Source of the DNA: a virus
Lineage: Duplodnaviria; Heunggongvirae; Uroviricota; Caudoviricetes
Length of the DNA stretch: 64,000 bases
Virus record (IMG/VR): IMGVR_UViG_3300021400_000113
Location: 40,932 to 104,931 of that record
Reading direction: 5' to 3' (one strand)
The position numbers and the translations under genes were made by a program. Positions within the stretch are counted from its first letter, which is position 1. Each line of letters starts with the position of its first letter. This document shows positions 145 through 59,529 of this stretch, piece by piece. Below the pieces are notes generated by a model. That model saw nothing but the letters and a program-made list of their open reading frames with translations, had not been told where the DNA came from and did no database searches.

Positions 145-173
145 TTGACTAAATGTTAAAATTATGTTATAAT
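145..173 (+). promoter_or_regulatory. conserved phage promoter copy (-35 TTGACT, 17 nt, -10 TATAAT)
   Basis: ttgact at 145-150 and tataat at 168-173, 17-nt spacer. Matches the repeated consensus. Confidence 0.5.
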
Positions 174-260
174 TTTAATGTAAGTAGGAAAGAAAAAACC
201 AAGAACGAAATCTTATTTCAAGACTAATATGATACCAGAATTAGGAGGAAGAAAATAAAG

Positions 261-401
261 ATGAACGAACTTGACGATTTTCTTTGTAATCCTAGCTATG
301 AAGAACTTGAAGAAGAATTTGAAGCTTGGCTTCAACTTCAAAATCAGGTAGAAGTTAAATACTTGACTCAAAATAAAAATTGTGATATAATAAATATGTA
401 A
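261..401 (+). CDS. small acidic hypothetical protein (46 aa)
   Basis: AGGAGG at 244-249, ATG at 261, TAA at 399-401. The 3' end overlaps a promoter copy. Confidence 0.3.
   Translation: MNELDDFLCNPSYEELEEEFEAWLQLQNQVEVKYLTQNKNCDIINM
363..391 (+). promoter_or_regulatory. conserved phage promoter copy
   Basis: ttgact at 363-368 and TGtgaTATAAT at 386-391, followed by aaatatgtaaag. Precedes tRNA-Ala. Confidence 0.55.
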
Positions 402-408
402 AGTGAAT

Positions 409-483
409 GGGGCATTCGTTCACTCGGTAGGACACGACCCTTGCAAGGTTGAAAAATCGGATCGTAACCGATATGCTCCACCA
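409..483 (+). tRNA. tRNA-Ala (anticodon TGC)
   Basis: Acceptor ggggcat pairs with atgctcc. Anticodon stem cgacc/ggttg, loop cttgcaa. T-arm atcgg-atcgtaa-ccgat. CCA is encoded. Confidence 0.5.
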
Positions 484-608
484 GAGGCCGCGAGGATGAC
501 TGGGCGACGGCAATAAGCGGAGTCATGACCGCATCGCTTTCCCGAGATACTAATAGCATCAACTCGTTAAAGGTTGAAATAGAACCGTAATATGGATGCT
601 ATACGCGT

Positions 609-681
609 GCGCGCTTAGCTCAGTTGGCAGAGCGCTTCGTTTACACCGAAGAAGTCAGCAGTTCAAATCTGTTAGTGCGCA
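609..681 (+). tRNA. tRNA-Val (anticodon TAC)
   Basis: Acceptor gcgcgct pairs with agtgcgc. D-arm tagctcagttggcagagc. Anticodon stem cttcg/cgaag, loop tttacac. T-loop ttcaaat. Confidence 0.6.
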
Positions 682-795
682 TTATAGACTCTCACAGCAA
701 ACAAACACATTCAGTGTCGTGGGTTCGATTCCCATCTTATGCGCAATAGCACGAGTAGCTCAGAGGGTAGAGTATGAAATTAGAGAGTCTAGTTA

Positions 796-825
796 TTTGA
801 CTTAAAATGAAAATTATGATATAAT
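796..825 (+). promoter_or_regulatory. conserved phage promoter copy
   Basis: ttgact at 796-801 and tgaTATAAT at 820-825, followed by aaatatgtaagaaag. Drives the tRNA-Met gene and the GC-rich island. Confidence 0.55.
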
Positions 826-858
826 AAATATGTAAGAAAGAGATAATATTTCCTTCAT

Positions 859-934
859 CGCGGACAGGACAAGCGGTTAAGTCATGGGCCTCATAAGCCT
901 CAAGGACTGGGTTCGACTCCCAGGCCCGCGACCA
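859..934 (+). tRNA. tRNA with CAT anticodon (Met, fMet or Ile-lysidine type)
   Basis: Acceptor cgcggac pairs with gcccgcg with one mismatch. Anticodon loop ctcataa. T-arm ctggg-ttcgact-cccag. CCA is encoded. Confidence 0.45.
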
Positions 935-2047
935 GCCTCTGCCGATGGGGCAATGAAACTAAATCGGTCGATTAAAGTGAAAGACGTTGGCGAACGAAAC
1001 GTTAGGGCGAAAAGGTAGGAACTGGTATGTTCGGGTTCGAATCCCGACGGAGGCAAGGGCGCATACTCCGAACCCTGATGCACTTAGAGTCTAGCCCGCT
1101 CGAAGGTGGCAACTGGAGAGCGTAACCGCACATCGTTCGCGGTATATAAATATGCGGTGTCGGCAAGCAGGGCCAAACTGCTGCAGCTCTGGTAGTCAGG
1201 CAGAGAACTAGAGGCTCCCTAGCATAAATAGAAGGAGTGACGAGGAAGTTACGCAGTTATGGCACTGCGTCTAATCCACCCAGACCAATTGGTCATGTTT
1301 TAAGACATAGAGGTAGGAGAAATTAAATGAGTCGCGCTAATAGACCGCAAGTTCGCAATAGTCTGTTTAGGAAACGCAGTTGAAAAGATACTAAGCGCCT
1401 ATTGGTGCCCAAATGCCGTAGTTAGCGTGTAAGTTTTGAAAGACTAAGACTGAGAAGCTTTAGGTCGCGCGCTAGGAAGAATGGGTTAAATGGAGTTTGA
1501 AGAACAGCCAAGTCCAAACAGTAAGGACATAAAAGAAGGAATGTGAGTTCCCGCCACGCTCAGAGTTGATGGTGCGCTACACTTCGGAAATGGGAAGTGG
1601 GGATGGACGAAGACCAGATTGAGATAGATATACAAACAATGCGCGAAAACAGGCTTGAATGTATGTAGGCCACCTCAAAAGTCATGGCTGAAAAACGGGA
1701 TGGAAGGAAACGAGTTCTCTTGTCCTTACCCAGGTTAAAACCTCGGAAAAGCGATTAATAGTAGTCGCACCCGTCACATTGCGTAGGCCAATTGAGCAGC
1801 AATGCGGTAATACCAGTGCACTGGTAGCAAAGTTACCCTGGCTCCCCAGAGTTTGGGCGCAACCTGGGTTATCAAACGCCTATATGCCCGCATCGAATAA
1901 TTGGTTAGTTCGTCACCCTTTCAAGGTGAAAATTCCGGATCGTTCCCGGATGTGGGTGCCATTACAGGCGGCACGAGTCTGTATAAAGAAACGTGTTCTT
2001 CTCTTCGGGACGACGAAGACCAGGTGAGGTAGTCAGGCTCGCCATAT

Positions 2048-2124
2048 GACCCCATAGTTCAGCTGGTTAGAATACGGCGCTGTCACCGCCGAGATCGCGG
2101 GATCATAACCCGCTGGGGCCGCCA
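2048..2124 (+). tRNA. tRNA-Asp (anticodon GTC)
   Basis: Anticodon stem cggcg/cgccg, loop ctgtcac. D-arm tagttcagctggttagaa. 3' end ctggggcc-g-cca. Acceptor has one mismatch and the T-loop is atypical. Confidence 0.5.
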
Positions 2125-2560
2125 TTCGCATCGCCTCCTTTACGATGCAAGTCTGCGGAAAATACGGATTCTCACTAACCTACGGGTAGCGCCCGCTTGC
2201 GGCTTAGCAGCAGACTATAATAAAAAGACAGGCGAAGTAAGTGACGCCCGACCCCAACAGCAGGGCGTTATAAGCGAGACACGAATCTATAAATATTGAG
2301 GCTAGCTTTATCAATATTATAGTGTTGGGACGTATGTGGCAACCAGTAAGCGCCCGAAATGCTTACGTGAGAGACATCTTATAGCTTATGGAGACGTCCC
2401 TATAATGATGTATAGCTTAGAGTGCTATTTGTCGCGCCATTTAGATGGGTCAGCAATGTTTCTTAATCGTCTGCAACACGAGAGATATGGGTTCGATTCC
2501 CGTCCAGGAAACTGGTAGCTTAATGGAAAAAGCGTTATTATAAGTCCATCTAGTTTTTAT

Positions 2561-2589
2561 TTGACTTTTTCCTAAATTTATAGTATAAT
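2561..2589 (+). promoter_or_regulatory. conserved phage promoter copy
   Basis: ttgact at 2561-2566 and tagTATAAT at 2584-2589, followed by taatacataagaaagg. Confidence 0.5.
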
Positions 2590-2621
2590 TAATACATAAG
2601 AAAGGAAAAATTCCTTTCTGT

Positions 2622-2744
2622 GGCCGATTCGCCAAGTGGTTTGGCAGGTGGCTGGTTGGATAGAATTAGTCCTAGCTAGGTGTAAGACCTAGATCCAGCA
2701 CAATTAACCACCCCAGGGGAGTTCAATTCTCTCATCGGCCGCCA
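2622..2744 (+). tRNA. tRNA-like gene with ~50-nt insert enclosed by the anticodon stem (candidate intron-containing tRNA)
   Basis: Perfect 7-bp acceptor ggccgat/atcggcc with encoded CCA. Class-II-like D-arm gccaagtggtttggc. ggtgg...ccacc encloses about 57 nt. T-arm gggag-ttcaatt-ctctc. Confidence 0.3.
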
Positions 2745-2820
2745 GCCTGAGCAAATGTGGAAAGTCGTATGTGCGGTTGGCTGACCTTAAAGCTAATTAC
2801 AATTTATGAGGTATACCGAA

Positions 2821-3354
2821 ATGATAAGACTAAAAATTCTACCCCCTTGGACAATTTTAGTCCGTAAATTAGAAGCTTTACTTGACGGTGATCCACAGAT
2901 TGCTTTTAATGTCAATTTTAGTGGGGAACATCCTACCGTTGCACTTTCTTGTAATAACGGAGATAAAGTTGCGGCTTTATAGCAAATTTTGCCTGAACAA
3001 ATTTTTTTTGGTAATGTAACATTGAAAATTATGATTGATGGTACTCCAAGTAATCGCGCTTTTACAAGTAAGGTTGAACTATTTGATACAGCGTTTAAGG
3101 GTAATCCAGCATATGCATATTCTGTATGTCCTGCTGAAGAAGGTTATCAGTGGATCGGCACAACTTATGTTGTATTTAATAATTGCGTAGTACAGTTCGC
3201 TGCGGACAACCTAAACGATTGTCATGGTATTATTAGTACTCTATATCAAGATATTGCGGATGAAATTCTAACTGGCCCAGCAACAGAAGGTGTTTTCTAT
3301 AATACTAATGTTGAGCGCGCGAATCTTGGTAAACCTCTTGGCGAATGGCCATAA
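2821..3354 (+). CDS. hypothetical protein; contains one in-frame TAG (2980-2982)
   Basis: ATG at 2821 is in the same frame as ORF 2989-3354 and separated from it only by TAG. Ends with TAA. Confidence 0.4.
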
Positions 3355-3487
3355 TTAATTAAAATTTAAGACCTGTCAGCTAATTTTCTTTTGCTTAGGG
3401 AGCACGGTGTCGATGGTTCGAGTCCATCTCTTCGCATAGCGAAGATAGCTCAGTCGGTAGAGCACGTATATAGCGGGTCTTGTATTC

Positions 3488-3565
3488 CGGGCAGTAGCGC
3501 AGTTGGTTAGTCGCGCGAACCTGATAAGTTCGAGGTCGGTGGTTCAAGTCCACCCTGCCCGACCA
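3488..3565 (+). tRNA. tRNA-Ile (anticodon GAT)
   Basis: Acceptor cgggcag/ctgcccg. Anticodon stem cgaac/gttcg, loop ctgataa. T-arm ggtgg-ttcaagt-ccacc. CCA is encoded. Confidence 0.6.
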
Positions 3566-3618
3566 CTCTCGTAAGAGACCACTTTCATGCCCTAGCCTAT
3601 TGGGTTAAGTAGGCAAAT

Positions 3619-3692
3619 GCGGTATTGGTATAGCGGCTGTGCCCTGGCCTTCCAAGCCGGTGACGCGGGTTCAAGCCCCGCATATCGCTCCA
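3619..3692 (+). tRNA. tRNA-Gly (anticodon TCC)
   Basis: Acceptor gcggtat/atatcgc. Anticodon stem ctggc/gccgg, loop cttccaa. T-arm gcggg-ttcaagc-cccgc. CCA is encoded. Confidence 0.55.
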
Positions 3693-4109
3693 TGGCCTTA
3701 GACGGGTCAAACGATGTAGGCTTTTTCCCAGCTCATTGGGTTAAGTGAGCATTAAGAGACTTGCCCACGCCTCTTAATAATGCGTACCAGGGAAGCACGT
3801 GGCTACAACGGTTAATAGTAGCAATATGGCGAGGTAGACCAATTTGGCAGAGTCAAGAGACTTTAGTAAAATTGAGCACTAAATAGGAAACTATTTATGT
3901 GAATCGCGTCAAATTCGGTGAAACTCCTTACAGGACAATACCGAGCGAAGCCTTTTAGGAACGTGTAGAGACTTGACGGCGCGCACCTAAACAGAAATGT
4001 ATGGTGAAGATAAAGTCCAGACTACAACGCTATTGCGGCCATAGTAATATGGAGTAGTAAGAAAATCTCTGTAGTGTGGGTTCGAATCCCATCCTCGCTA
4101 CCATTTATG

Positions 4110-4185
4110 TCCTCGTAACAGAATTGGCATATGTATTCGGCTCAAACCCGAAGTTCTGTGGGTCCGACTCCCACCGAGGATACCA
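4110..4185 (+). tRNA. class-I tRNA with CAA anticodon (Leu codon UUG; short variable loop)
   Basis: Acceptor gtcctcg/cgaggat with a G-U pair. Anticodon stem ttcgg/ccgaa, loop ctcaaac. T-arm gtggg-tccgact-cccac. CCA is encoded. Confidence 0.45.
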
Positions 4186-4186
4186 T

Positions 4187-4264
4187 GTCCAGTTGGCGCA
4201 ATTTGGCAGACGCGCATGGTTTAGGCCCATGTTTTTGAAGGTTCAAATCCTTTACTGGACACCA
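4187..4264 (+). tRNA. class-I tRNA with TAG anticodon (reads CUA; short variable loop)
   Basis: Perfect acceptor gtccagt/actggac. Anticodon stem catgg/ccatg, loop tttaggc. T-arm gaagg-ttcaaat-ccttt. CCA is encoded. Confidence 0.5.
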
Positions 4265-4420
4265 TTCAAATATTTAGTGGCGGAATATGTAGACGCAGAA
4301 AATACGAACAAGTCAGTCCAACATTCTAGTCATGAATAGAACCACGGTCTGCCGGACATAGGAAATACTTGCAGCTTAGTAATAGGCGAACCTGTGTGGT
4401 GAAAATCCACACCTAAATAT

Positions 4421-4446
4421 TTGACTTTCTTCAAAATTATATATAG
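4421..4446 (+). promoter_or_regulatory. variant promoter copy
   Basis: ttgactttcttcaaaattatatata. Weaker -10. Precedes the small ORF at 4458-4631. Confidence 0.3.
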
Positions 4447-4457
4447 AGGAAAGTAAA

Positions 4458-4631
4458 ATGAATAAAAAAGAAATTATTCAAAAAATTTATAAAGAGTATG
4501 GAAAAGAAAATATAAAATTTTTAACAATAGAAATAGATGAAGATAACCAAAAGGAATACTATGTTCATTATTTAGTCTTAGATGATATTAAATGGATAAG
4601 TCATACAGAATATTTTCCAATTAATATTTGA
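4458..4631 (+). CDS. small hypothetical protein (57 aa)
   Basis: RBS agagga, ATG at 4458, TGA at 4629-4631. Confidence 0.4.
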   Translation: MNKKEIIQKIYKEYGKENIKFLTIEIDEDNQKEYYVHYLVLDDIKWISHTEYFPINI

Positions 4632-4656
4632 CTTTTCTTCAAAATTATTGTATAAT
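4628..4656 (+). promoter_or_regulatory. conserved phage promoter copy
   Basis: ttgact at 4628-4633 and tgtataat at 4649-4656, followed by aattatgtaagaaag. Confidence 0.5.
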
Positions 4657-4683
4657 AATTATGTAAGAAAGAAAGAAGGGAGA

Positions 4684-4905
4684 ATGAAAATGAACCCATT
4701 AAGTTATAAACTTGGCACAAAATTCTCCGGAAAAATTCTTAATGATTGGTTATCTGAACAGATTACTAATCATGGTAGTCATGAAAAAATAGCTCAAAAA
4801 ATTGATAAACATTTTATCCTAAAAAATGATAGAAATTATCAATTAGTACAAATGTCATATCGTGATCGTGAAGAAAAAAGTTTAGGATTTATGAAGGTGG
4901 AATAA
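4684..4905 (+). CDS. hypothetical protein
   Basis: RBS aagggag then ATG at 4684 (MKMNPL...). Stop TAA. Confidence 0.45.
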   Translation: MKMNPLSYKLGTKFSGKILNDWLSEQITNHGSHEKIAQKIDKHFILKNDRNYQLVQMSYRDREEKSLGFMKVE

Positions 4906-4906
4906 A

Positions 4907-5092
4907 ATGGCAATTTTAATTAAAGGCGTATCTAAATATAATAAAGATTGTTATAATTGTCCTTTTAATGATTCAAATTGCTGGTGTAATATCACTAAAA
5001 GTGAAATAGATCGTGATGATTATACCACAGAAGCTCCATGTCCAATTATTGAAATACCAGATTCAATACTTGACTTTTTCCAAAATTCATGA
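4907..5092 (+). CDS. small Cys-rich hypothetical protein
   Basis: ORF with multiple Cys residues (CYNCPF...CWC). The 3' end runs into a promoter copy. Confidence 0.45.
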   Translation: MAILIKGVSKYNKDCYNCPFNDSNCWCNITKSEIDRDDYTTEAPCPIIEIPDSILDFFQNS

Positions 5093-5098
5093 TATAAT
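5070..5098 (+). promoter_or_regulatory. conserved phage promoter copy
   Basis: ttgact at 5070-5075 and tgatataat at 5090-5098, followed by aaatatgtaagaaagg. Drives GC-rich non-coding island 5116-5700. Confidence 0.55.
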
Positions 5099-5732
5099 AA
5101 ATATGTAAGAAAGGAAAACGAAATGTAAAAGACATTTTGTTTAGCAATTATGAACCAAGTGAAGATGTGCTAACCACACAGCTTGGGATACTTGAATAAC
5201 AGCCATACACTACGGCCCGGGATACTAGGCAAGTGCGGCCGCGAAACTAGTAATAGTTAGCGATAGTGGAGAAACTCCAAATGTTAAGAGTATGCGCCAA
5301 GTAATTTGCTTGAAAATGCACGATTCCTTACGGCGACATAATAGGAAGCCAGGTTAAGAGCCAGGCCAAATCCAGATAAGGTATTGGGGTGGTAGCCAAT
5401 ACAAACTCTGGAAAAACCACAAGTCGCTATGTCGATGAAAGCCAGAAATGGCATATAAGTAAGGTTTGCGGTTGGAGTAGCCCAATTTGACAGTAATTCT
5501 AATAATATTTGATACAGATATTGAAGATGCTGAATGGTTTGGGTGAAACTTAGAGGTAAGCAATCCTCTCTATTCTCGGCGCTTGGCGTGGGAATCGGAT
5601 GGTATAAGGTCGCTACTTATACCACAGCCCGGTTTTCAATAGTAGCATAATATTCAAGAAGAATTATGAGGTACGGCGAAGGTCGCAGTAATTGTTAAAC
5701 AAAGTGTCTTTTATATTGAAAAAGGATATAAA

Positions 5733-5948
5733 ATGAAAGCTAAATGTATCAAATGTAAAACAGTTTGGGAATATGAAGCAAATGAAATGAAAGTTGAACT
5801 AAATGGAACAGGATTAATTATAGCTTTATATTGTCCGAAATGTCATAAACAGTTTTATGGATGCAATCCAAATGAACTTGCTTTAAGTGTAACGCCTGTT
5901 TCTGTTGATCATAAAATTGAACGTAAGGCAAAGTATGATTGGGAGTAA
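5733..5948 (+). CDS. small zinc-ribbon protein (CxxC...CxxC)
   Basis: ORF with CIKCK and CPKCH motifs. RBS aaaggatataaaatg. Confidence 0.5.
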   Translation: MKAKCIKCKTVWEYEANEMKVELNGTGLIIALYCPKCHKQFYGCNPNELALSVTPVSVDHKIERKAKYDWE

Positions 5949-5963
5949 ATATAATATTGATAT

Positions 5964-5992
5964 TTGACTTCATTCTAAAATTATGATATAAT
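5964..5992 (+). promoter_or_regulatory. conserved phage promoter copy
   Basis: ttgact at 5964-5969 and tgatataat at 5984-5992, followed by aaatatgt. Sits upstream of a tRNA cluster. Confidence 0.55.
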
Positions 5993-6179
5993 AAATATGT
6001 TGAGAACGTGGGACATATAAGTTATATGGAGTTAAGGCGCCACCACGAACAGTACTATATGCGGCGATTCTCAACATTAACTAAACGTGAAGGGAACAAG
6101 TTACCTTAGAAGACTTGCGCGTCAAGTGGACCTGTAACGGGAGGAGAAGGTCGTAAATATTCTCCCTCCGCCATTTAAT

Positions 6180-6258: not shown

Positions 6259-6332
6259 TTAACGACGATTACAGCAATAGTTTTAACAATAAATTAGGGA
6301 TTTATTTAGTTAGAAATCGTCGTGTTATTTAT

Positions 6333-8215: not shown

Positions 8216-8244
8216 TTGACTTTTAGTTAAAATTATAGTATAAT
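8216..8244 (+). promoter_or_regulatory. conserved phage promoter copy
   Basis: ttgact at 8216-8221 and tagtataat at 8236-8244, followed by aaatatgtaaagaac. Confidence 0.55.
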
Positions 8245-8263
8245 AAATATGTAAAGAACATGG

Positions 8264-8420
8264 GGTGTGATTAAAGCATCAGGGTAGTTTTCGCTGTACT
8301 TAGAAATAAGTACCGGTTCCGGGCAAACAGGAGCAAGCGTAAGGGTATGAAGCATTTTAATTGCACGCACCGAAGTGGGTCCGCACATCCACTGGGGTTC
8401 AATTCCCCCACACTCCACCA
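8264..8420 (+). ncRNA. ~157-nt RNA with tRNA-like termini (GGGG 5' end, T-arm plus CCA 3' end); long tRNA-like or intron-containing tRNA
   Basis: 5' ggggtgt pairs with 3' acactcc-a-cca. T-arm ctgggg-ttcaatt-cccc. About 85 extra nt in between. Lies directly downstream of a promoter copy. Confidence 0.3.
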
Positions 8421-9760: not shown

Positions 9761-9789
9761 TTGACTTTATTTTAAAATTATGTTATAAT
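9761..9789 (+). promoter_or_regulatory. conserved phage promoter copy
   Basis: ttgact at 9761-9766 and tgttataat at 9781-9789, followed by atatatgtaaaaaag. Confidence 0.55.
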
Positions 9790-9822
9790 ATATATGTAAA
9801 AAAGAAGAGGAGAAAAAAGAAG

Positions 9823-10582: not shown

Positions 10583-10889
10583 TTATAATTATAATAGCGC
10601 AGAAGGATGGCGGTGTCCCCATTGTGGCGCAGTAATGGCTCCTTGGTAGCCTTCTTGTATTAATTGTACTGGCAAGAGTTAGAGACCAATAGAATATCAT
10701 ACTGCTGCTCCAAATATTACTATTCAATCTGGTAAAACTAACGCAACTCCTAACACTATTACTTGGGCTAGTTCATTAGATAATTGTATTACCACTGATA
10801 AAACTATAAATTGTACTTTAACTTCAAACACTATAACTGCTCAAGATAAATTACGTACAACTTTAAAATCTGCTGGAATTGATATTTGA
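10575..10889 (+). CDS. zinc-ribbon protein (CPHCG...CINCTG) with two in-frame TAGs
   Basis: ATG at 10575 overlaps the upstream stop. Frame stays open through 2 TAG codons to TGA at 10887-10889. Confidence 0.35.
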
Positions 10890-10914
10890 CTTTTATAAAA
10901 AATTATATTATAAT
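10886..10914 (+). promoter_or_regulatory. conserved phage promoter copy
   Basis: ttgact at 10886-10891 and attataat at 10907-10914, followed by atatatgtaaagaaaag. Drives GC-rich island 11040-11640 and downstream tRNAs. Confidence 0.5.
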
Positions 10915-11650
10915 ATATATGTAAAGAAAAGAGAAAGGAAAGGTGATTGATATGCGTAAAACTCGTCGTATTGTGTTTTCTTCCTCTTGGAGTCGTGCTC
11001 GTCAGGCTAAAGAAATTGATGAGTGGCAGATTTAAGCGCTTCATCTCAGATAGATGAGATGCGAAATTGCGGCCAATCGCTATACGGCGCTACCGTTAAT
11101 ACCCTTCTAACGCCTCTCGTAGAAGCGCACCACTAGAAGGTTTATCACCCGGGTATTGTGATGTAGGACATAGGGCCTACGGTTGTATGAAACAACGATA
11201 AAAATTCATAGCGAGAAGATGTCATCAGTAAATGAACTTGATGTGCATCCTCACAAATTGCGGCCAAATTGCATCGCTACCGTATCTTGCCTATTAAGTA
11301 GGTCGGCCGCTGAAAGATAGGAAGAAACCGCTAATTGATTATGTTCCTGCGGTATATAAAAAGAACGTAATTCGCGAAGAGAAGATTCTTAGAACGGAAC
11401 ACTTCATACCCCGAGCGTGGTAAAATAAAGTCCTCTAAGACGTAGCGCGGTATATAGCGGTCGCAACAGCGTGAGAGTAAAATAAAAACGCTAACAACAT
11501 GTTGGGGTTTACGGTGTAAAAATCCCCGCTATGGCGAAAAACCGTTTCCTTTGTAAGTGGCTAAGCCGATAGCCCATACATTGTGCGGTTTGTATAATAG
11601 TTATATAGATAAAGTATAGTGTCGCCGCAACATTATACATCGGCTTATAT

Positions 11651-12833: not shown

Positions 12834-12862
12834 TTGACTTTTTTTATAATTTATTATATAAT
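12834..12862 (+). promoter_or_regulatory. conserved phage promoter copy
   Basis: ttgact at 12834-12839 and tatataat ending at 12862, 17-nt spacer. Confidence 0.45.
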
Positions 12863-12889
12863 ATAAATATAAAAGAAAGGAGATTAAAT

Positions 12890-15201: not shown

Positions 15202-15230
15202 TTGAATTTTTTTTTATAAAATGCTATAAT
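15202..15230 (+). promoter_or_regulatory. variant promoter copy (TTGAAT -35) upstream of structural module
   Basis: ttgaat at 15202-15207 and tgctataat at 15222-15230, 17-nt spacer. Confidence 0.4.
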
Positions 15231-19187: not shown

Positions 19188-19216
19188 TTGACTTTTCTCT
19201 AAATTTATATTATAAT
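19188..19216 (+). promoter_or_regulatory. conserved phage promoter copy
   Basis: ttgact at 19188-19193 and tataat at 19211-19216, followed by atatatgtaaaaaag. Confidence 0.55.
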
Positions 19217-19281
19217 ATATATGTAAAAAAGAAAACCTACGGTCGTGACAACGACTAAGATGAAAAGGAGAGAAAAGGAAT

Positions 19282-20800: not shown

Positions 20801-20836
20801 GGGTTAGACGAAAGTCTAACCCTTGATTTTTTTTTA
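20801..20836 (+). terminator. rho-independent terminator
   Basis: Hairpin gggttagacgaaagtctaaccc followed by a T-run. Overlaps the -35 of the next promoter. Confidence 0.6.
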
Positions 20837-20851
20837 AATTTATGATATAAT
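20823..20851 (+). promoter_or_regulatory. conserved phage promoter copy (TTGATT variant)
   Basis: ttgatt at 20823-20828 and tgatataat at 20843-20851. Confidence 0.5.
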
Positions 20852-20884
20852 ATTTTTGTAAGAAAGAAAGAAAGGATTGATCTT

Positions 20885-23492: not shown

Positions 23493-23519
23493 TTTAAAAA
23501 TTAATCACTTGATTTTTTT
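23485..23519 (+). terminator. rho-independent terminator
   Basis: Hairpin gtgattaatttaaaaattaatcac followed by a T-run. Confidence 0.55.
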
Positions 23520-23537
23520 CTAAAATTATGATATAAT
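23509..23537 (+). promoter_or_regulatory. conserved phage promoter copy (TTGATT variant)
   Basis: ttgatt at 23509-23514 and tgatataat at 23529-23537. Confidence 0.5.
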
Positions 23538-23569
23538 ATTTATAGAAAAGAGAAAGGAAAGTGATTTTA

Positions 23570-28106: not shown

Positions 28107-28564
28107 AAATGATTCATGGATTTGATAATAAATACTCCTTTCTAAGCAACTTTTATGCTTGCCAGGTAGAATATGAAGGAATCATATATCCTACTTCTGA
28201 ACATGCTTTTCAAGCCGCAAAATCTCTCGACCCAGATGTACGCAAATGGGTCGCGGCCGCGCCTACTCCTGGGCAAGCTAAACGACGCGGGCACACGATT
28301 GAATTGCGGCCCGATTGGGAAGAAGTAAAAGACAAAGTTATGCTTGATATTGTGCGTGAAAAATTCAGAAATGAAGATATGCGCGCCCGTTTAATTGCTA
28401 CAATTAATGAAGGATATAGCGGTTTCTGTGAAGATAATTATTGGCATGACAATTATTGGGGTAATTGTAATTGTTCTAAATGCGCAAACATTGAGGGTAA
28501 AAATATGTTAGGTAAAGTTTTAATGGAAGTCGCGCGCGAAGTTATTAGTGAAATTATTAATTGA
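28103..28564 (+). CDS. NADAR-domain protein (YbiA/DUF1768 family)
   Basis: FLSNFYACQVEYEGIIYPTSEHAFQAAK matches the N-terminal NADAR signature. Confidence 0.6.
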   Translation: MKMIHGFDNKYSFLSNFYACQVEYEGIIYPTSEHAFQAAKSLDPDVRKWVAAAPTPGQAKRRGHTIELRPDWEEVKDKVMLDIVREKFRNEDMRARLIATINEGYSGFCEDNYWHDNYWGNCNCSKCANIEGKNMLGKVLMEVAREVISEIIN

Positions 28565-28589
28565 CTTTTTTATAAATTTGCGATATAAT
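28561..28589 (+). promoter_or_regulatory. conserved phage promoter copy
   Basis: ttgact at 28561-28566 and gcgatataat at 28580-28589, followed by atatatgtaagaaaaag. Confidence 0.55.
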
Positions 28590-28623
28590 ATATATGTAAG
28601 AAAAAGAAAAGGAGAATGATTTT

Positions 28624-32615: not shown

Positions 32616-32644
32616 TTGACTTTTTTAAAATTTTATGATATAAT
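32616..32644 (+). promoter_or_regulatory. conserved phage promoter copy
   Basis: ttgact at 32616-32621 and tgatataat at 32636-32644. Confidence 0.55.
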
Positions 32645-32660
32645 TATAATATGAAAGGGG

Positions 32661-33578
32661 ATGAAAATGATGCACGATGTATTTTACTTTACTGATATTC
32701 ATGGGGAATGGCGCCTATATCGTACTATGGTAGATTATTGTAAAAAACAGGATTCAGAATGCACCATAATTTTTGGCGGTGATGCTTGTGATCGCGGCCA
32801 GGACGGATATAAAATTATGAAAGATATTATTGCTGATCCTCAAATTATCTATCTTACCGGGAATCATGAATATCTTTTTGTTCGCGCTTGTGACGCTATC
32901 ATCGGTCATCATGCCCAAAGCGATGAACTTTATAATAAGCTACATTCTTATACGAAAGAACAGGCAGAATCTTTTATTCAAGAATTTGCTTTTAAAAACG
33001 TAGATGTAAATATTTCATGTGGAAATGGTGGCTTACCTACTCTGGTTGATTGGATTCTTGATGGAGCAGATGAAGAATTTGTAGATACAATTCGTATGCT
33101 TCCTTATACTTTTTCATATGAAAATTATGATTTTTGTCATGCAGGCTCAACATATTCTTATTTTAAAGAAGTAGCAGACGAGGAATATGAAAATATGCAG
33201 GCTCATTTTATCGCAGAACAAAAGATACTTTGGGATAGGGATTGTATTCCTCTTGGATGGGAAAATGGTCGTATTTGCGTTCATGGCCATACTCCTACAA
33301 TATATTTGCCTTCTCGCGCATATGGCAGCCGCGATAAAAGTCCATTACGTATCCACCCCGCAGTATGGGGAGAAATGATGGGTGGAGAAGCCAAACGGGG
33401 CGGAAAGAAAATAGATATGGATACCGGCGCTTGTTTTACTGGTCGTGCCTATTTAATGAATGTGCTTACAAAAGAAGTTATTGGATTTTATGATTCCAAA
33501 GTAACCAATGGAGATATTGATGTAATTTACATTTTTGAAAAATATACCATTGAAGAAAAAACTTTAAACGAAGATTAA
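32661..33578 (+). CDS. Ser/Thr protein phosphatase-family metallophosphoesterase
   Basis: Motifs DIHG, GGDACDRG and GNHE. The true start may be ATG at 32667 or 32670. Confidence 0.6.
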   Translation: MKMMHDVFYFTDIHGEWRLYRTMVDYCKKQDSECTIIFGGDACDRGQDGYKIMKDIIADPQIIYLTGNHEYLFVRACDAIIGHHAQSDELYNKLHSYTKEQAESFIQEFAFKNVDVNISCGNGGLPTLVDWILDGADEEFVDTIRMLPYTFSYENYDFCHAGSTYSYFKEVADEEYENMQAHFIAEQKILWDRDCIPLGWENGRICVHGHTPTIYLPSRAYGSRDKSPLRIHPAVWGEMMGGEAKRGGKKIDMDTGACFTGRAYLMNVLTKEVIGFYDSKVTNGDIDVIYIFEKYTIEEKTLNED

Positions 33579-37592: not shown

Positions 37593-37621
37593 TTGACTTT
37601 TTTATAGTTTTATAGTATAAT
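37593..37621 (+). promoter_or_regulatory. conserved phage promoter copy
   Basis: ttgact at 37593-37598 and agtataat at 37614-37621. Confidence 0.55.
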
Positions 37622-37651
37622 ATTTATAGAAAAGAAAAGGAGATTTAATTA

Positions 37652-40368: not shown

Positions 40369-40397
40369 TTGACAATAATTTAAATTTATGATATAAT
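40369..40397 (+). promoter_or_regulatory. conserved phage promoter copy (TTGACA)
   Basis: ttgaca at 40369-40374 and tgatataat at 40389-40397. Confidence 0.5.
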
Positions 40398-40419
40398 AAA
40401 AGAAAAAGGAGAACATAAT

Positions 40420-45276: not shown

Positions 45277-45307
45277 GGGTTGAAAATTCAACCCTTTTAT
45301 TTTTTTT
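45277..45307 (+). terminator. rho-independent terminator
   Basis: Hairpin gggttgaaaattcaaccc followed by a T-run. Confidence 0.6.
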
Positions 45308-45334
45308 GACTATTTTTAAAAATTATGCTATAAT
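45306..45334 (+). promoter_or_regulatory. conserved phage promoter copy
   Basis: ttgact at 45306-45311 and tgctataat at 45326-45334. Confidence 0.5.
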
Positions 45335-45363
45335 ATAATTAGAAAGGTATAAGGAGAACGAAT

Positions 45364-46159: not shown

Positions 46160-46188
46160 TTGACAAAAAGTAAATTTTATGTTATAAT
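46160..46188 (+). promoter_or_regulatory. conserved phage promoter copy (TTGACA)
   Basis: ttgaca at 46160-46165 and gttataat at 46181-46188. Confidence 0.5.
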
Positions 46189-46207
46189 AAAAGAAAAAGG
46201 TGAAAAT

Positions 46208-46612
46208 ATGAAACTAACTTTAAAAGATAGAATTAAATTTCTATTTCGTAAGCGTTATAGTAATAAATGTAAACTAAGTACGCGCGGCAACTATATGGTT
46301 TATTATTTAATTCGTAAATATATTAATGAAGAAAAAATTGATACCATTCAGGCTTATGAAGAACAAGTTGATAACTGCTTGAAAGAAATTAATGAAATGA
46401 AGTTTTTTGAAACAGTAACAAAAGAAAAACCTGAATATCCAGATACTCCTGAAATTCGTAGAGTTTTTGCCGCGACATTAGTTATAAATATAATACTTAA
46501 AACTGCTATTCCAGAGGATAAAGAAAAAATATTATCTTATATTTCTGAAGAAAAATATAAAAAAGATATATTAGAAATTCAACAAAAATCTGACTGGATA
46601 AAATTTATATAA
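46208..46612 (+). CDS. hypothetical protein
   Basis: RBS aaaggtg then ATG at 46208 (MKLTLKDRIKF...). Confidence 0.4.
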   Translation: MKLTLKDRIKFLFRKRYSNKCKLSTRGNYMVYYLIRKYINEEKIDTIQAYEEQVDNCLKEINEMKFFETVTKEKPEYPDTPEIRRVFAATLVINIILKTAIPEDKEKILSYISEEKYKKDILEIQQKSDWIKFI

Positions 46613-47117: not shown

Positions 47118-47146
47118 TTGACTTTTTATTAAAGTTAAAATATAAT
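47118..47146 (+). promoter_or_regulatory. conserved phage promoter copy
   Basis: ttgact at 47118-47123 and tataat at 47141-47146. Confidence 0.5.
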
Positions 47147-47177
47147 ATATATAGAAAAAAGAAAGGAAGTAGGAGTT

Positions 47178-48867: not shown

Positions 48868-49171
48868 AAGTGAAGCACTTGAAAATTTAGATTGGTATTT
48901 TTCAGTTGGTGATGGATTTAACGCTGAAATTGTATCAGAAAGTTATTAGTTCATAAAAAAACGACTTGAAGACTCAGAGCAATTAACCGATACATTAATA
49001 AAAATTTTAATTTATTTATTTAATCATTATAAATAGGATTTATTTAAAAATTTTAATTGTAATGGTGATAATTGGATTGATTTATTAACTATTTATAATA
49101 AAATTGTAGATGAAATGAAAAAAGAAATGCCTGAACCTTGGTATAATTATGGAATAAAATTAAAAGATTGA
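48860..49171 (+). CDS. hypothetical protein with two in-frame TAGs
   Basis: ATG at 48860. Frame is open to TGA at 49169-49171. Confidence 0.3.
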
Positions 49172-49196
49172 CTTTTTCTTAAAATTATATTATAAT
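49168..49196 (+). promoter_or_regulatory. conserved phage promoter copy
   Basis: ttgact at 49168-49173 and tataat at 49191-49196, followed by taatatgtaaaagag. Confidence 0.55.
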
Positions 49197-49228
49197 TAAT
49201 ATGTAAAAGAGAAAGGAGAATAATAATA

Positions 49229-50107: not shown

Positions 50108-50136
50108 TTGACTTTTTATTAAAATTATGATATAAT
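50108..50136 (+). promoter_or_regulatory. conserved phage promoter copy
   Basis: ttgact at 50108-50113 and tgatataat at 50128-50136. Confidence 0.55.
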
Positions 50137-50167
50137 AAATTATAAACAAGAAAGGAAGTATTTATTA

Positions 50168-51952: not shown

Positions 51953-51978
51953 GTCAAGTTAAATAACTTGACTTTTTC
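51952..51978 (+). terminator. terminator hairpin overlapping next promoter -35
   Basis: agtcaagttaaataacttgact palindrome followed by ttttt. Its 3' arm is the -35 TTGACT. Confidence 0.45.
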
Positions 51979-51996
51979 TTTAATTTATGTTATAAT
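51968..51996 (+). promoter_or_regulatory. conserved phage promoter copy
   Basis: ttgact at 51968-51973 and tgttataat at 51988-51996. Confidence 0.55.
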
Positions 51997-52025
51997 TAAA
52001 TGTAAAGAAAAGGAGGATTGATATA

Positions 52026-53897: not shown

Positions 53898-54053
53898 ATG
53901 ATTAATGAAAACAATTTAACTATAAATGACATAGAAAATTTAATTGATTATTATTGTAGTGATTGCTGCCGCAGTTGTGATGAATGTTCTTTAAGAGATT
54001 TTAGTAATGAACTTTATTATACAATAGAATCCTATAATAAGATGAATAATTGA
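53898..54053 (+). CDS. small Cys-rich hypothetical protein (51 aa)
   Basis: RBS aaggag then ATG at 53898. Stop overlaps the next promoter. Confidence 0.3.
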   Translation: MINENNLTINDIENLIDYYCSDCCRSCDECSLRDFSNELYYTIESYNKMNN

Positions 54054-54078
54054 CTTCTCTTTAAAATCATGATATAAT
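54050..54078 (+). promoter_or_regulatory. conserved phage promoter copy
   Basis: ttgact at 54050-54055 and tgatataat at 54070-54078. Confidence 0.55.
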
Positions 54079-54109
54079 ATAATAAATAAGAAAAGGAAGT
54101 GAAACCAAT

Positions 54110-56878: not shown

Positions 56879-56907
56879 TTGACAAAAATTAAAATTCATG
56901 ATATAAT
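56879..56907 (+). promoter_or_regulatory. conserved phage promoter copy (TTGACA), first of tandem pair
   Basis: ttgaca at 56879-56884 and tgatataat at 56899-56907. Confidence 0.5.
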
Positions 56908-56979
56908 ATATACAGAAAGAGAGAAAAAAGAAAATCTCTGAAAGCCCTATTCAAAAGGGAAAAAATAATAGATAAATAC

Positions 56980-57008
56980 TTGACAATTGAATAAAAATCT
57001 GATATAAT
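56980..57008 (+). promoter_or_regulatory. conserved phage promoter copy (TTGACA), second of tandem pair
   Basis: ttgaca at 56980-56985 and tgatataat at 57000-57008. Confidence 0.5.
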
Positions 57009-57105
57009 ATGTATATAAAGTGGAGCGGAAAAACTGAATAATGAAACGCACTACTTTGATATAAAAATTAATTAATTAAATGAATTTTAAGGAGAATGAT
57101 GTATT

Positions 57106-57465
57106 ATGACAGCAAATAGTGAATTAGTTCTAAACTTTCTAAAGAAGAATTATGGTAAGGAATTTACTAAGAAGGAAATTTCAGAAGCAGTTGGTGTTTC
57201 CGTTCCCGCAGTTACTGGTAGTCTAAATGGTTTAATTAAGAAGGGTTATGCTGAAACTACTCGCACTGAGGAAGTAGTAGTATCCGAAGCGACTGAAACC
57301 CGTAAGGCTCAGGTTAAGAATGTTCTATATCATCGTCTAACCGAAGCTGGCCTAACTTATGATCCCGTAGCCGAAGAAGCCGCCGCGAAGGAAGCGAAGG
57401 AAGCCGCTAAGGCTGCTCGCGCCGCAGAACGTGCTGCTGCTAAGGCCGCAAAGGAAAACGCCTAA
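57106..57465 (+). CDS. winged-helix DNA-binding protein with Ala/Lys/Glu-rich histone-H1-like tail
   Basis: N-terminal HTH-like region (...ISEAVGVSVPAVTGSLNGLIKKGY...). C-terminus AEEAAAKEAKEAAKAARAAERAAAKAAKE. RBS aaggag. Confidence 0.5.
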   Translation: MTANSELVLNFLKKNYGKEFTKKEISEAVGVSVPAVTGSLNGLIKKGYAETTRTEEVVVSEATETRKAQVKNVLYHRLTEAGLTYDPVAEEAAAKEAKEAAKAARAAERAAAKAAKENA

Positions 57466-57542
57466 TTTAAATTATAAATGGGCGATTCATGAAAATGGGT
57501 CGCCCATTAATCTTATCACTGAAATATAAGGAGAAATAAATA

Positions 57543-58442
57543 ATGAAGACGATTAATGATATTGGAAATAACAAAGTAAATATTACAGGTAAATTACTAG
57601 ACGCAACGTTTAATAGTGGTAAGACTAAAACTGGTGCTCCATATGATAGAGCAAATTTAACGATTCGTGTAGTTCAAACTTTTGGTGGACATGAAGAAGT
57701 AAGCGAGATTCCAGTAAGTATGTTTGCTTCTAAGTTTAAGTCTGACGGCGGCCCTAATCCCGCTTTCCAGAGTATTCAAGACCTACGTGAAATGAAGACT
57801 GCGCAGAATGTTGGTATTGACAATGCAGATTCACTTCGTATGACTGGTGCGACTCTTCGTGAAAATAACTTTGTAGCAAAGAGTGGTCAGCTTATTAATG
57901 GATGGCAAATTAATGGCTCATTTATTAATAGTGCTTCAACTGCGGATGTAGCTTCATTCAACCTTGATATTTTCATTATGGATATGACTGATGAAGTAGA
58001 TCGTGATGGTGATGAAACCGGTCGTTTACTTATCAAGGGCGCACTTGTACAATATGGCGGGAAGCTAGATGTACTACAATTCATTGTTGAAAATCCAGAT
58101 ACAGTAGACTATATTCGTTCTCACTGGGAAGTAAATAGTACAGTATCTGTACGTGGACGTATTCGTGTAAATGTAATTGAAGAAAAATCTTCTGGCTCTG
58201 ATAATTCTTGGGGCGAAGAAATTCCAGAAACTACAACTCGTACAGTTCGTGAACTTATTATCACTAAGGGTGATGATGAACCCAAGGAAGAAGAATTTGC
58301 TTATGATCCCGCTGAAATTAAGAAAGGATTTAATGTAAGAAAGGCTCTAATTGAACAGATGCAGTTAGACGCTCGTAATAAGAGCACCGCTAAGCCCGCT
58401 ACGGCTACTGCTTCTGCCTCTAAGTTTGACTGGGAAGAATAA
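57543..58442 (+). CDS. putative single-stranded DNA-binding protein (OB-fold) with acidic C-terminus
   Basis: 299-aa protein. Position in the replication module and acidic/aromatic tail ...SKFDWEE. Confidence 0.35.
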   Translation: MKTINDIGNNKVNITGKLLDATFNSGKTKTGAPYDRANLTIRVVQTFGGHEEVSEIPVSMFASKFKSDGGPNPAFQSIQDLREMKTAQNVGIDNADSLRMTGATLRENNFVAKSGQLINGWQINGSFINSASTADVASFNLDIFIMDMTDEVDRDGDETGRLLIKGALVQYGGKLDVLQFIVENPDTVDYIRSHWEVNSTVSVRGRIRVNVIEEKSSGSDNSWGEEIPETTTRTVRELIITKGDDEPKEEEFAYDPAEIKKGFNVRKALIEQMQLDARNKSTAKPATATASASKFDWEE

Positions 58443-58472
58443 TCCAGTCAAACTTTTAGGAGGAATTAAGTT

Positions 58473-59471
58473 ATGGCTAATATTGATATATTTACTCTTG
58501 AGCCAAGTAAAATTTCAAGAGATTTAAAAGGTAAGTTTTTACTTATTTATGGTTTGCCAAAATCCGGTAAATCAACTTTTGGATCTTAGTTACCTCGTTC
58601 GTTGTTCCTTAATTTTGAACAAGGTACAAACGCATTAGCTGGTATTCGTAGCGTACCTATTCTTCGTTGGACAGATTTTAAAAAGGTATTAAGTTAGTTA
58701 AGAAAACCGCAAGCACGCGAAATGTATGATAGTATAGTTGTTGACACTGCTTCGATTGCTTGGCAACTATGCGAAGAATATATTAAACAGCGTGAGGGAG
58801 TAGATTCAATTCGGGATATTCCTTGGGGCCAAGGATGGAATATGCTAAAAACAGAATTTTCAGAGTGTTGGCGCGAAATTACCCTACTCGGTTTTGGCAT
58901 ATTATTTATTGCTCATAGTAAGGAAAAGCCCACAGAAATGCGCGATGAAGAAGGCAATCCTATTACAGCAGTCGCTCCCGATCTACCAAATAATGCCTAT
59001 ACAATCATTAATTCCATTGTAGACATTATTGGATACTTACAAGTTCAGATGAATCCGGACGGTACTTCTCAACGCTACCTATATACTCGTTCTACTCCAA
59101 CAGTATTCGCCGGTTCTCGTTATCAATATTTAGCGCCAAAAATTAAGTTTGGTTATAAAGAACTTGTAGAAGCAATTGGTGATGCAATTGATAAAGCGGT
59201 TGAACTTGATGGAGCAGAAGTAACAGATCATACTGAAATGGCACATATTGTAGATAGACCTTTCCAAGAAGTAATGGAAGAAGCAAAACGAATTTGGATC
59301 GGATATATAGAAAGTGCTGAAACAGAAGAAGAAAAAGAACGGCACTTAATGATTATGAAGGATATTATAAAGAAAGTATTTGGAACAGAAGATTTCAAAT
59401 TAAGTCAAGCCGTTCCTTCACAATCTAGTTTGGTCGAGTTGTTTATTGATGAAATGAAAAATCTTTCCTAA
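58473..59471 (+). CDS. Sak4-like / AAA_24 RecA-fold ATPase with two in-frame TAGs
   Basis: RBS aggagg then ATG at 58473. Walker A YGLPKSGKSTFGS. Frame is continuous with ORF 58722-59471 across 2 TAG codons. Confidence 0.55.
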
Positions 59472-59474
59472 ATA

Positions 59475-59499
59475 AAAAGAGCTATAAGCTCTTTTTTTA
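59475..59499 (+). terminator. rho-independent terminator
   Basis: Hairpin aaaagagctataagctctttt followed by a T-run. Confidence 0.55.
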
Positions 59500-59500
59500 T

Positions 59501-59529
59501 TTGACTTTCTTTTGAGTTTATGATATACT
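59501..59529 (+). promoter_or_regulatory. conserved promoter copy (-10 TATACT variant)
   Basis: ttgact at 59501-59506 and tgatatact at 59521-59529. Confidence 0.45.

Follow-up and report, generated by a model that had tools for sequence, protein, structure and literature searches.

What are the nearly identical A/T-rich elements that recur throughout a 64,000-nucleotide stretch of tailed-phage DNA (IMG/VR record IMGVR_UViG_3300021400_000113, positions 40,932 to 104,931; hereafter the window), and what accounts for the conservation that runs on past their -10 hexamers? A sequence-only reading of this DNA had listed about 30 copies of an extended promoter element and had suggested that the part beyond the -10 was an additional recognition element. 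We consider it quite probable that these elements are the early/middle promoters of an uncultured tailed phage of ~180 kb, probably infecting rumen or gut Clostridia, and that they are read by the host RNA polymerase with its housekeeping sigma factor. The elements have a fixed anatomy, follow rules of strand and position, are conserved across a clade of related phages, are nearly absent from the tail/lysis module and coincide with mosaic boundaries between genomes.

At all 28 listed positions the DNA reads as a promoter of the TTGAC(T/A)-17-TATAAT type on the + strand, which is also the strand of all the window genes. The coordinates hold for 27 copies; in the third, the -35 hexamer begins one base further on than listed (797 instead of 796). 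Exact matches to TTGACTTT-N15-19-TATAAT number 15, versus 0.03 expected from dinucleotide shuffles, and TATAATAAATATGTAAGAAAG, which joins the -10 to the downstream box, occurs 10 times with at most 3 mismatches (0.03 in shuffles). When a generic sigma-70 scan was run over 12-52 kb, blind to the list, its top ranks were taken by listed copies, all on the + strand, including 12 of the 12 sites with 11-12 of 12 hexamer matches. The matrix scan proposed in the sequence-only reading was then done with a weight matrix built from the 28 copies and spanning -8 relative to the -35 through the -10. These copies scored 24-42 bits, a range that is circular for the copies themselves, and the next best site on either strand scored at most 13 bits. 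Because of this gap on both strands, the family is sharply bounded, complete as listed and confined to one strand, with 28 copies in 64 kb, or one per 2.3 kb. Two sites that had been called variants score below 12 bits and fall outside it. The first, at 15202..15230 (+), is a generic sigma-70-like match (TTGAAT-17-TGcTATAAT) without the family spacer or downstream features. The second, at 4421..4460 (+), has a -35 and spacer nearly identical to those of the copy at 4628, with a ribosome-binding site and ATG in place of the -10; this promoter half joined to a ribosome-binding site is probably a recombination scar and no working member.

The -35 reads TTGAC in 26 of the 28 copies and TTGAT in 2, the -10 reads TATAAT in 27 and TATACT in 1, and the spacer is exactly 17 nucleotides (nt) long in every copy. 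The information profile adds a conserved A/T-rich stretch at -8 to -1 relative to the -35, and a spacer made of a T-run after the -35 and AAAwTTATG before the -10. In the TRTG columns (-17 to -14) the window copies have T, A, T and G at frequencies of 0.87, 0.87, 0.91 and 0.66, the G being at 0.77 in 234 copies from relatives. The discriminator, i.e., the six bases after the -10, is without C or G. In 26 of the 28 copies the seventh base past the -10 is a purine with a T before it; in the copies at 50108 and 51968 it is a T, with an A or G one base away. From this purine, the predicted start, an A/G-rich, C-free tract runs for about 15 more nt. In both the window and the clade profiles, information is highest at the -35, the TG and the -10, which are the sigma contact positions. 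The hexamers, the 17 +/- 1 base-pair spacing, the TG/TRTG and the co-orientation are those of the extended -10 class read by housekeeping sigma in Gram-positive bacteria, and the core, judged by its sequence, is the housekeeping-sigma consensus of these bacteria, TRTG extended -10 included. All copies are oriented with the genes and lie at the 5' ends of genes or RNAs, as is fitting for promoter elements and not for a repeat unrelated to transcription.

The element is not peculiar to the window. Relatives in IMG/VR, with GyrA proteins 55-91% identical and several contigs of 179-189 kb, appear to come from rumen-type metagenomes, judging by sample numbers and the ROOL RNA link. In 48 gyrA-centred loci a core-only matrix found 275 copies, every one of them on the gyrA strand, and the logo of the 234 unique copies repeats the spacer, the C/G-free discriminator and the 15 A/G-rich nt. 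In bacterial genome collections the strict extended motif was found only on contigs binned with metagenome-assembled genomes of Clostridia (Lachnospiraceae, Faecalimonas, Acutalibacteraceae and Ruminococcus); because it is multi-copy there, these are probably phage contigs. Three of them (L224, L227 and L228) are short contigs binned with Lachnospiraceae, Faecalimonas and Acutalibacteraceae that carry 2-4 copies. TATAAT-ATATATGTAA is invariant in 4/4 copies on L224 and 4/4 on L227, and is found in one of the 2 on L228, the other reading AATTATGTAA. Since the cassette occurs on these contigs, the family extends beyond the ~180-kb rumen clade. A looser promoter pattern run over viral contigs returned many unrelated contigs among the matches listed.

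With respect to temporal class, the late modules were sampled through the tail protein, which covers tail and lysis DNA rather than the head and packaging modules. In one locus (L212), the 12.5 kb directly upstream of the promoter-rich region had no copy at 14 bits or more, and the copies begin right after it. This DNA encodes two endolysins (one PG_binding_1/peptidase, one GH25), an HNH nuclease, a tail-assembly protein, a tail fibre and a tail protein. In the five longest tail-gene loci, the roughly 60 kb that lie upstream of the tail gene yielded 2 weak matches (22-24 bits), and six further loci, partly overlapping these five and extending into a block of large tail-type open reading frames (ORFs), had 2 matches in about 120 kb. 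PHROG assigns mostly "unknown function" to the large ORFs upstream of the tail genes, so a virion role is suggested for them by their neighbours. The copies stand by tRNA, replication and nucleotide-metabolism genes and are near-absent from the sampled tail/lysis DNA. From sequence, this is the distribution expected of an early/middle class served by unmodified host polymerase, with the late genes under another regime.

The copies are also closely tied to what lies upstream of them. A terminator-like hairpin is found directly upstream in 9 of the 28 window copies. The -35 itself is the 3' arm of the hairpin at 50108 and 51968, the stem ends at the first -35 base or abuts it at 20823 and 23509, and in all four the T-run of the spacer doubles as the U-tract or tail. 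Among 469 clade copies, an upstream hairpin of -10 kcal/mol or lower is present in 37% (7.7% in shuffles), and an inverted -35 copy lies within 30 nt of 55, against 14.6 expected. In three window copies (4628, 28561 and 54050) the upstream gene ends on the TGA within the -35 TTGACT, and in a fourth (5070) it ends on the TGA of the extended -10.

Comparison of related genomes places the cassettes at boundaries of homology. Ahead of gyrA, the homology of most relatives sets in at the -35, and the DNA before it is unrelated between genomes; some relatives are without the gyrA promoter, and one of them (L002) keeps only the leader. In the closest relative, L001, the start of 5 of 8 homology blocks falls within the 25 nt that precede a -35, one block has its end shortly after a cassette, and genes between cassettes have been replaced. 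Over all locus-by-gene cases, homology starts at promoter-led genes in 62%, versus 21% for other genes. This pattern matches that of the promoter-early stem-loops (PeSLs) of T4-type phages, although it does not prove that recombination takes place within the cassettes; the half cassette at 4421 and the promoterless L002 leader are scars only suggestive of it.

The same observations bear on the possibility that the similarity among copies is mainly historical, i.e., that one ancestral promoter-plus-ribosome-binding-site unit was copied and then homogenised by duplication, recombination or gene conversion, with descent rather than selection keeping the copies alike. The position at mosaic junctions, the scar at 4421 with its near-identity to copy 4628, the lost promoter in L002 and the regional distribution of sub-variants (the window's first 30 kb has most of the ATGTAAG type) would all fit such a history. 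Yet hundreds of copies that differ from one another, and relatives whose GyrA is as little as 55% identical, keep the same positional profile, and spacer positions that make no contact vary freely, which fits selection and not mere recency. Homogenisation and selection can coexist, and we regard descent as the chief cause as possible but rather unlikely.

The conservation past the -10 that had been reported is real, and consists of the C/G-free discriminator, the purine 7 nt past the -10 and the A/G-rich, C-free run. A literal box common to all copies did not hold up: ATATGTAAGAAAG is near-exact in only about 10-14 copies, and variants such as ATAGAAAAG and AAAAGAAAAAGG are found elsewhere. 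The claim that the conserved stretch reaches into the ribosome-binding site was right for about 9 nt of it. In 17 of the 28 copies a start codon lies 19-34 nt past the -10, so the leader is only about 13-28 nt long; the remaining 11 stand ahead of tRNAs, the ROOL RNA or longer leaders. The 3' part of the stretch is explained because, in such short leaders, the Shine-Dalgarno (SD) site falls at a near-fixed distance from the promoter. The purine tract is not wholly explained by the SD. At 73 internal ribosome-binding sites, AGGAG is present at -14 to -8 only and the composition further upstream is background; promoter-proximal genes have an A/G run from -24 relative to the start.

The clade copies were found with a matrix that ends at the -10, and their downstream columns are therefore unbiased. 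In the 170 clade copies without a nearby start codon, the purine fraction 9-22 nt past the -10 is 0.74-0.96 (mostly at least 0.82) and reaches 0.96 at the predicted start site, nearly equal to that of the ORF-driving copies. The window copies before ROOL (5070), tRNAs (797, 2561) and long leaders (19188, 56879) keep the tract as well. The box alone, allowing 2 mismatches, has 17 matches in the window, 10 of them at promoters and 7 elsewhere, compared to 5.4 expected by chance. Since RNA-driving copies keep the tract, internal ribosome-binding sites are without it and the box elsewhere is at the chance level, the tract is promoter-bound; it is not an RNA signal that stands on its own, and not a translation signal of general use. 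This speaks against the RNase site (as a free-standing signal) and the translational enhancer (as a general one) that had been proposed for it.

Across 452 unique clade copies the base 7 nt past the -10 is a purine in 0.87-0.96, again with a T before it, and the words around the predicted start differ (ATGTA in 62, ATAGA in 59, ATATA in 25 and GAAAA in 25). The literal word ATATGTAAG is weaker in the 234 unique clade copies than in the window. Read from these sequences, the downstream conservation is one of base composition by position, together with a Y(-1)R(+1) context at the start, and not one specific site. What survives of the proposed additional recognition element is a promoter-linked initial transcribed tract, compositional in nature; there is no indication of a site for a phage sigma or activator, the core having the canonical housekeeping consensus. 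Three narrower interpretations of the box were also tried and rejected. ATG-TAA within it is not a start-stop mini-ORF or leaderless start, as the predicted transcription start is the G of this ATG and the variant ATAGAA has no ATG. A general extension of the ribosome-binding site is ruled out by the internal sites, and a dispersed independent site by the chance-level matches away from promoters.

Two sequence-specific proposals nevertheless deserve consideration. The first holds that TATAAT-AWATAT-R-TAAGAAAG, from the discriminator to about +15, is a dedicated functional module of Clostridia-infecting phages that works as leader/operator for a phage factor, the cassette being a recombination linker for early genes. 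We think this unlikely; if true, the phage factor could time early shut-off, or could mark early RNAs (tRNA precursors, ROOL) for processing or protection. The second, which we think decidedly unlikely, is that the region past the -10 (ATATGTAAGAAAG and its relatives) is a separate sequence-specific site, such as a shut-off operator, an RNase/processing site or a translational enhancer. A nearly identical box in 10-14 window copies could be such a site, as could ATATATGTAA right after TATAAT in all 4 copies on each of two Clostridia-binned contigs; the tract is kept ahead of RNA genes, and the window encodes RNA-repair enzymes and, behind the tandem promoter pair, a winged-helix protein. However, the positions are compositional (A/G, no C) in the 452 clade copies and several alternative words fill them, the box away from promoters does not exceed chance, the internal genes without it exclude a general translation signal, and no cognate factor was found.

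The reading as host-read early/middle promoters can be set beside three known systems, from which the design, as far as sequence and analogy go, would be familiar: an architecture of the Herelleviridae type, a genome behaviour like that of PeSLs and a transcribed region like that of T5 N25. In staphylococcal Herelleviridae, transcriptome-mapped early/middle promoters read TTGACW-17-TRTGN-TATANT, and late promoters differ (PMC10383478). The -35, 17-bp spacer, TRTGN and -10 of these phages (phage K, vB_SauM-515A1; PMC10383478) are arranged just as in the window cassettes. The host polymerase reads these promoters and the late genes use another promoter type, as they apparently do here, and these phages also express ROOL/GOLLD-like long RNAs beside tRNA genes. 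Unlike in the Herelleviridae, the spacer (T-run plus AAAwTT) and the post-start purine tract are also conserved in the window; and the Herelleviridae promoters were mapped by RNA-seq, whereas the window cassettes are known from sequence alone.

PeSLs are found in the T4-type phages RB49/phi1, PST and nt-1 (PMC2839356, PMC4122927). Like the window cassettes, they are repeated composite units of about 100 nt that span the upstream stop codon in A/T-rich DNA, with, in part of the window copies, a stem-loop terminator upstream of or overlapping the -35 of a strong sigma-70-like promoter, followed by SD and start codon. Both are enriched ahead of small ORFs of unknown function, and both lie at insertion, deletion or replacement boundaries of related genomes. 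The window cassettes are analogous rather than homologous to PeSLs: the promoter is of Gram-positive style, the stems are heterogeneous, often A/T-rich and not of the RB49/phi1 G-tract/C-tract type that homology would call for, and only about a third of the copies have a stem-loop at all.

The T5 early promoters, N25 above all (PMC12464699; Kammerer et al. 1986 via PMC5961368), share with the window a near-consensus core and an A/T-rich upstream region and spacer. In N25, as in the window, a purine-rich initial transcribed sequence leads straight into the SD, and there it sets escape rate and promoter strength. This native sequence speeds escape, and replacement with a pyrimidine-rich one cuts productive synthesis ~10-fold (PMC12464699); in high-throughput work, escape was favoured by purine content and by GG/GA near +6 (PMC5961368). 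The N25 spacer is reported to have an UP-like element (PMC12464699), and the resemblance of the A-tract/T-tract spacer in the window to this "spacer UP element" is a lead only. The N25 discriminator has a G that stabilises the open complex, whereas the window discriminator is purely A/T, and the host and the phage differ.

A further question is whether a phage-encoded sigma or a phage RNA polymerase, instead of the host housekeeping holoenzyme, recognises the cassettes. The AAAwTTATG spacer is unusually conserved, T at position 6 of the -35 is invariant in most copies, and the genome was inspected in part, so some room is left for such a factor. But hexamers, 17-nt spacing and TG/TRTG all follow the textbook consensus for housekeeping sigma, the genes served (tRNAs, replication) are typical of host-polymerase early/middle classes, and no sigma or polymerase domain was found among the ~45 window proteins screened, which makes a phage-specific recognition very improbable. 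That the cassette is a dispersed repeat unrelated to transcription, such as the end of a mobile element or a signal for packaging or replication, would agree with its high copy number, its size of roughly 50-75 nt and its place at rearrangement junctions, but is hardly credible given 0 of 275 copies on the other strand, a fixed distance to start codons, information peaks exactly on the sigma contacts and depletion in late modules.

For host-read early/middle promoters, the following mechanism can be proposed. Each copy is a portable cassette of roughly 75 nt, starting with an A/T-rich upstream stretch that often contains or overlaps the terminator of the preceding unit. TTGAC(T/A), the 17-nt spacer with its T-run and AAAwTTATG, TATAAT and the A/T-only 6-nt discriminator follow in this order. 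Host sigma-A holoenzyme would initiate at the purine 7 nt past the -10, giving an initial transcribed region of ~15 purine-rich, C-free nt; for protein genes, the SD and the start codon come next, the latter 19-34 nt past the -10. Because a near-consensus promoter binds polymerase very tightly, escape tends to become limiting, and the purine tract may be chiefly an aid to escape of the tightly bound polymerase, by analogy with T5 N25. It may also keep the leader unstructured. In Bacillus mRNA decay, a ribosome placed near the 5' end protects the mRNA, and we propose the same for the purine-tract leaders. Probable roles of the A/T-only discriminator and the conserved A-tract/T-tract spacer are the fine adjustment of melting and of hexamer alignment. 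Lastly, the repeated cassettes could act as homology patches for modular shuffling, as PeSLs do in T4-type phages.

Several points weigh against this interpretation. We infer start sites, timing and sigma dependence alike from sequence, and the escape role of the purine tract is carried over from work in E. coli. The host class rests only on Clostridia-binned, phage-like contigs, which are a hint and no proof. About half of the proteins of the window were screened, which leaves room for a phage sigma or a polymerase-modifying factor. The genomes of the relatives were sampled in part, and the related loci are non-independent samples. Module boundaries would naturally fall at operon starts, whether or not promoters mediate recombination. 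The early genes do not form one block: copies are also found at 63-75 kb of a 181-kb contig, by an iteron-like region. Finally, a PurA/PurZ-like gene in the window (30049-31131) raises the possibility of modified DNA, which would affect promoter melting.

That gene encodes a divergent protein of the adenylosuccinate-synthase family. Its best PHROG match is a family annotated as PurZ-type enzyme, and it scores far below the NCBIfam cut-offs of both PurA and PurZ. If it is PurZ-like, 2-aminoadenine in the DNA might alter the melting of promoters. The non-coding segment 1-640 of locus L144 (IMGVR_UViG_3300031853_000001, about 63.2-63.8 kb) contains several direct repeat families (AGCTGGAA units, CTTTACTATGCTA units and GTCAA(g/a)TATTTGACAAGT pairs). 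A rightward (156) and a leftward (541) family promoter face each other across these repeats, and another rightward one lies at 3353; the segment could be a replication origin or a genome-end region.

The current understanding of transcription is unchanged by these cassettes. What they do supply is a promoter model that is ready for use on an uncultured clade of ~180-kb rumen/gut phages, covering 28 window copies and over 450 unique copies from relatives. It tells early regions apart from late ones and sets the limits of transcription units, among them those of ROOL and the tRNA array; it also points to a host that is Gram-positive and probably Clostridial. A PeSL-like design in an unrelated phage lineage suggests a convergent solution for the safe shuffling of early genes, and the cassettes, which are compact, strong-looking and self-insulated, are possible expression parts for Clostridia.

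The individual copies are given here from the -35 to 20 nt past the -10, all on the + strand, with their weight matrix scores. At least 25 tRNA genes are found at positions 400 to 12,500, and it had been noted that several copies serve RNA genes, which is the case for tRNA blocks (363, 797, 5964, 8216) and for the ROOL RNA (5070). The first cassette, 145..193 (TTGACT-17-TATAAT; 35.3 bits), precedes a small ORF at 261-401 with a leader of 87 nt. Cassette 363..411 (34.0 bits) precedes tRNA-Ala (409-483), which starts 17 nt past the -10, and tRNA-Val (608-682). Next come 797..845 (32.7 bits), which has the exact downstream box and serves a tRNA at 859-931 (Rfam match) and a G+C-rich RNA block as far as tRNA-Glu and tRNA-Asp, and 2561..2609 (38.4 bits), whose leader is able to form a 5' hairpin and which is followed by unannotated RNA/ORFs, tRNA-Ile, tRNA-Gly, a group I intron and two tRNA-Leu. 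Cassette 4628..4676 (37.7 bits) drives ORF 4684-4905, the start codon being 27 nt past the -10. A full-length ROOL RNA (5131-5705; Rfam RF03087, 323 bits, model positions 1-574) sits within the tRNA array; as it starts 33 nt past the -10 of cassette 5070..5118 (41.1 bits), it has its own dedicated, strong promoter. Downstream of 5964..6012 (40.3 bits) is the tRNA block 6180-7108 (Arg, Tyr, a CUA-anticodon tRNA, Thr and Lys), and downstream of 8216..8264 (41.3 bits) are unannotated RNA, tRNA-Pro, tRNA-Thr and ORF 8824. The highest score belongs to 9761..9809 (42.1 bits), which abuts the upstream stop codon and precedes ORF 9823-10011 and tRNA-Ile(tat); 10886..10934 (36.6 bits) is followed by a short ORF and then the tRNA block 11651-12518.

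The protein genes of the window include RNA-repair genes, RNase H, ligases, nucleotide metabolism genes, gyrB, gyrA, a DnaB-like helicase and a primase. Cassette 12834..12882 (37.1 bits) lies just past a terminator hairpin at 12802-12822 with T8, and drives a polynucleotide-kinase-like gene at 12890 (PHROG match). Cassette 19188..19236 (41.1 bits) precedes ORF 19282, with a leader of 65 nt, and a DUF2828/DUF7788 gene. The two copies with a TTGATT -35 are 20823..20871 (37.9 bits; HNH endonuclease gene), where the terminator stem 20800-23 ends in the -35 and the T-rich spacer is the U-tract, and 23509..23557 (41.0 bits; ORF 23570), where the abutting hairpin is A/T-rich. Cassette 28561..28609 (37.2 bits) drives ORF 28624, 32616..32664 (35.4 bits) drives ORF 32667 behind a terminator at 32584-32608 with T7, and 37593..37641 (33.9 bits) drives the RNase H gene at 37652. 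At 40369..40417 (38.2 bits; ORF 40420) the core is a perfect TTGACA-17-TATAAT with TG, and a terminator lies upstream at 40328-40345. The terminator of 45306..45354 (33.7 bits) is at 45275-45296, and homology with L001 resumes exactly at this cassette. The weakest member, 46160..46208 (24.4 bits; ORF 46208), has TTGACA and a 12/12 hexamer match. Cassettes 47118..47166 (32.3 bits) and 49168..49216 (36.5 bits) precede a nucleoside deoxyribosyltransferase gene at 47178 and ORF 49229, respectively, and an L001 homology block starts at 49161.

In 50108..50156 (40.0 bits; ORF 50168) the hairpin that uses the -35 as its 3' arm and the spacer T-run as its tail is at 50089-50114, and in 51968..52016 (36.6 bits; gyrB at 52026) the corresponding hairpin is at 51951-51974. 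The latter cassette is the left end of homology in 26 relatives. The gyrA cassette, 54050..54098 (37.9 bits; gene at 54110), is kept in most relatives, with unrelated DNA upstream of it. The tandem pair reported ahead of a DNA-binding protein gene is indeed present: 56879..56927 (34.3 bits) and 56980..57028 (28.2 bits) precede gene 57106, the leader from the downstream one being 97 nt, and the product is a winged-helix (MarR-like) protein with an Ala/Lys-rich tail. The last copy, 59501..59549 (33.2 bits), is the one with a TATACT -10; it has a terminator-like hairpin and T-run upstream, and precedes ORF 59560 and the DnaB-like helicase gene.

As for relatives among deposited phages, megablast with 20 kb of the window turned up no relative and gave tRNA-sized matches only, and tblastn of GyrA against phage collections gave about 30% identity at best, with Staphylococcus, Enterococcus and Listeria phage records among the matches.

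The tRNA region has further features of its own. The tRNA with a CUA anticodon (6638-6727) has a long variable arm, is labelled "Pyl" by ARAGORN and is a potential amber suppressor. Stop-codon reassignment was considered on this account, and there is no sign of it in the window, where TAG terminates 11 of the 90 called genes. The group I intron match (3854-4038; 58 bits, above the gathering score) is just 5' of the two tRNA-Leu genes. Four ORF-poor stretches between tRNA genes (931-1880, 2124-3488, 8250-8485 and 10935-11650) are G+C-rich (~44% versus 33% overall), and each is downstream of a family promoter. They have no Rfam match above any gathering score, and could represent structured RNAs of an unknown kind, or tRNAs that are degenerate or contain introns. 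YrlA (Y-RNA-like) matches of 25-35 bits, below the gathering score of 69, were found at 698-802, 2484-2533 and 3404-3468; together with the DUF2828/DUF7788 protein gene (19606-20790), they are only a lead to a Ro/Y-RNA-type module. By the tRNA array is also an RNA-repair set (12890-14244 and 26219-27445), consisting of a polynucleotide-kinase-like protein, a phosphoesterase and an RNA ligase, which is a typical counter-measure to host anticodon nucleases.

Elsewhere in the window, two tandem xanthine/uracil-family permeases (42647-45276), the second of which is missing from L001, and a formate/nitrite-transporter-like protein (14626-15189) represent a membrane transport repertoire that is unusual for a phage. 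Finally, at 45882-45990 a strong terminator with a 14-bp stem is followed by two tandem TCCTAC...GTAGGA hairpins, with TTTTCCTAC after each.

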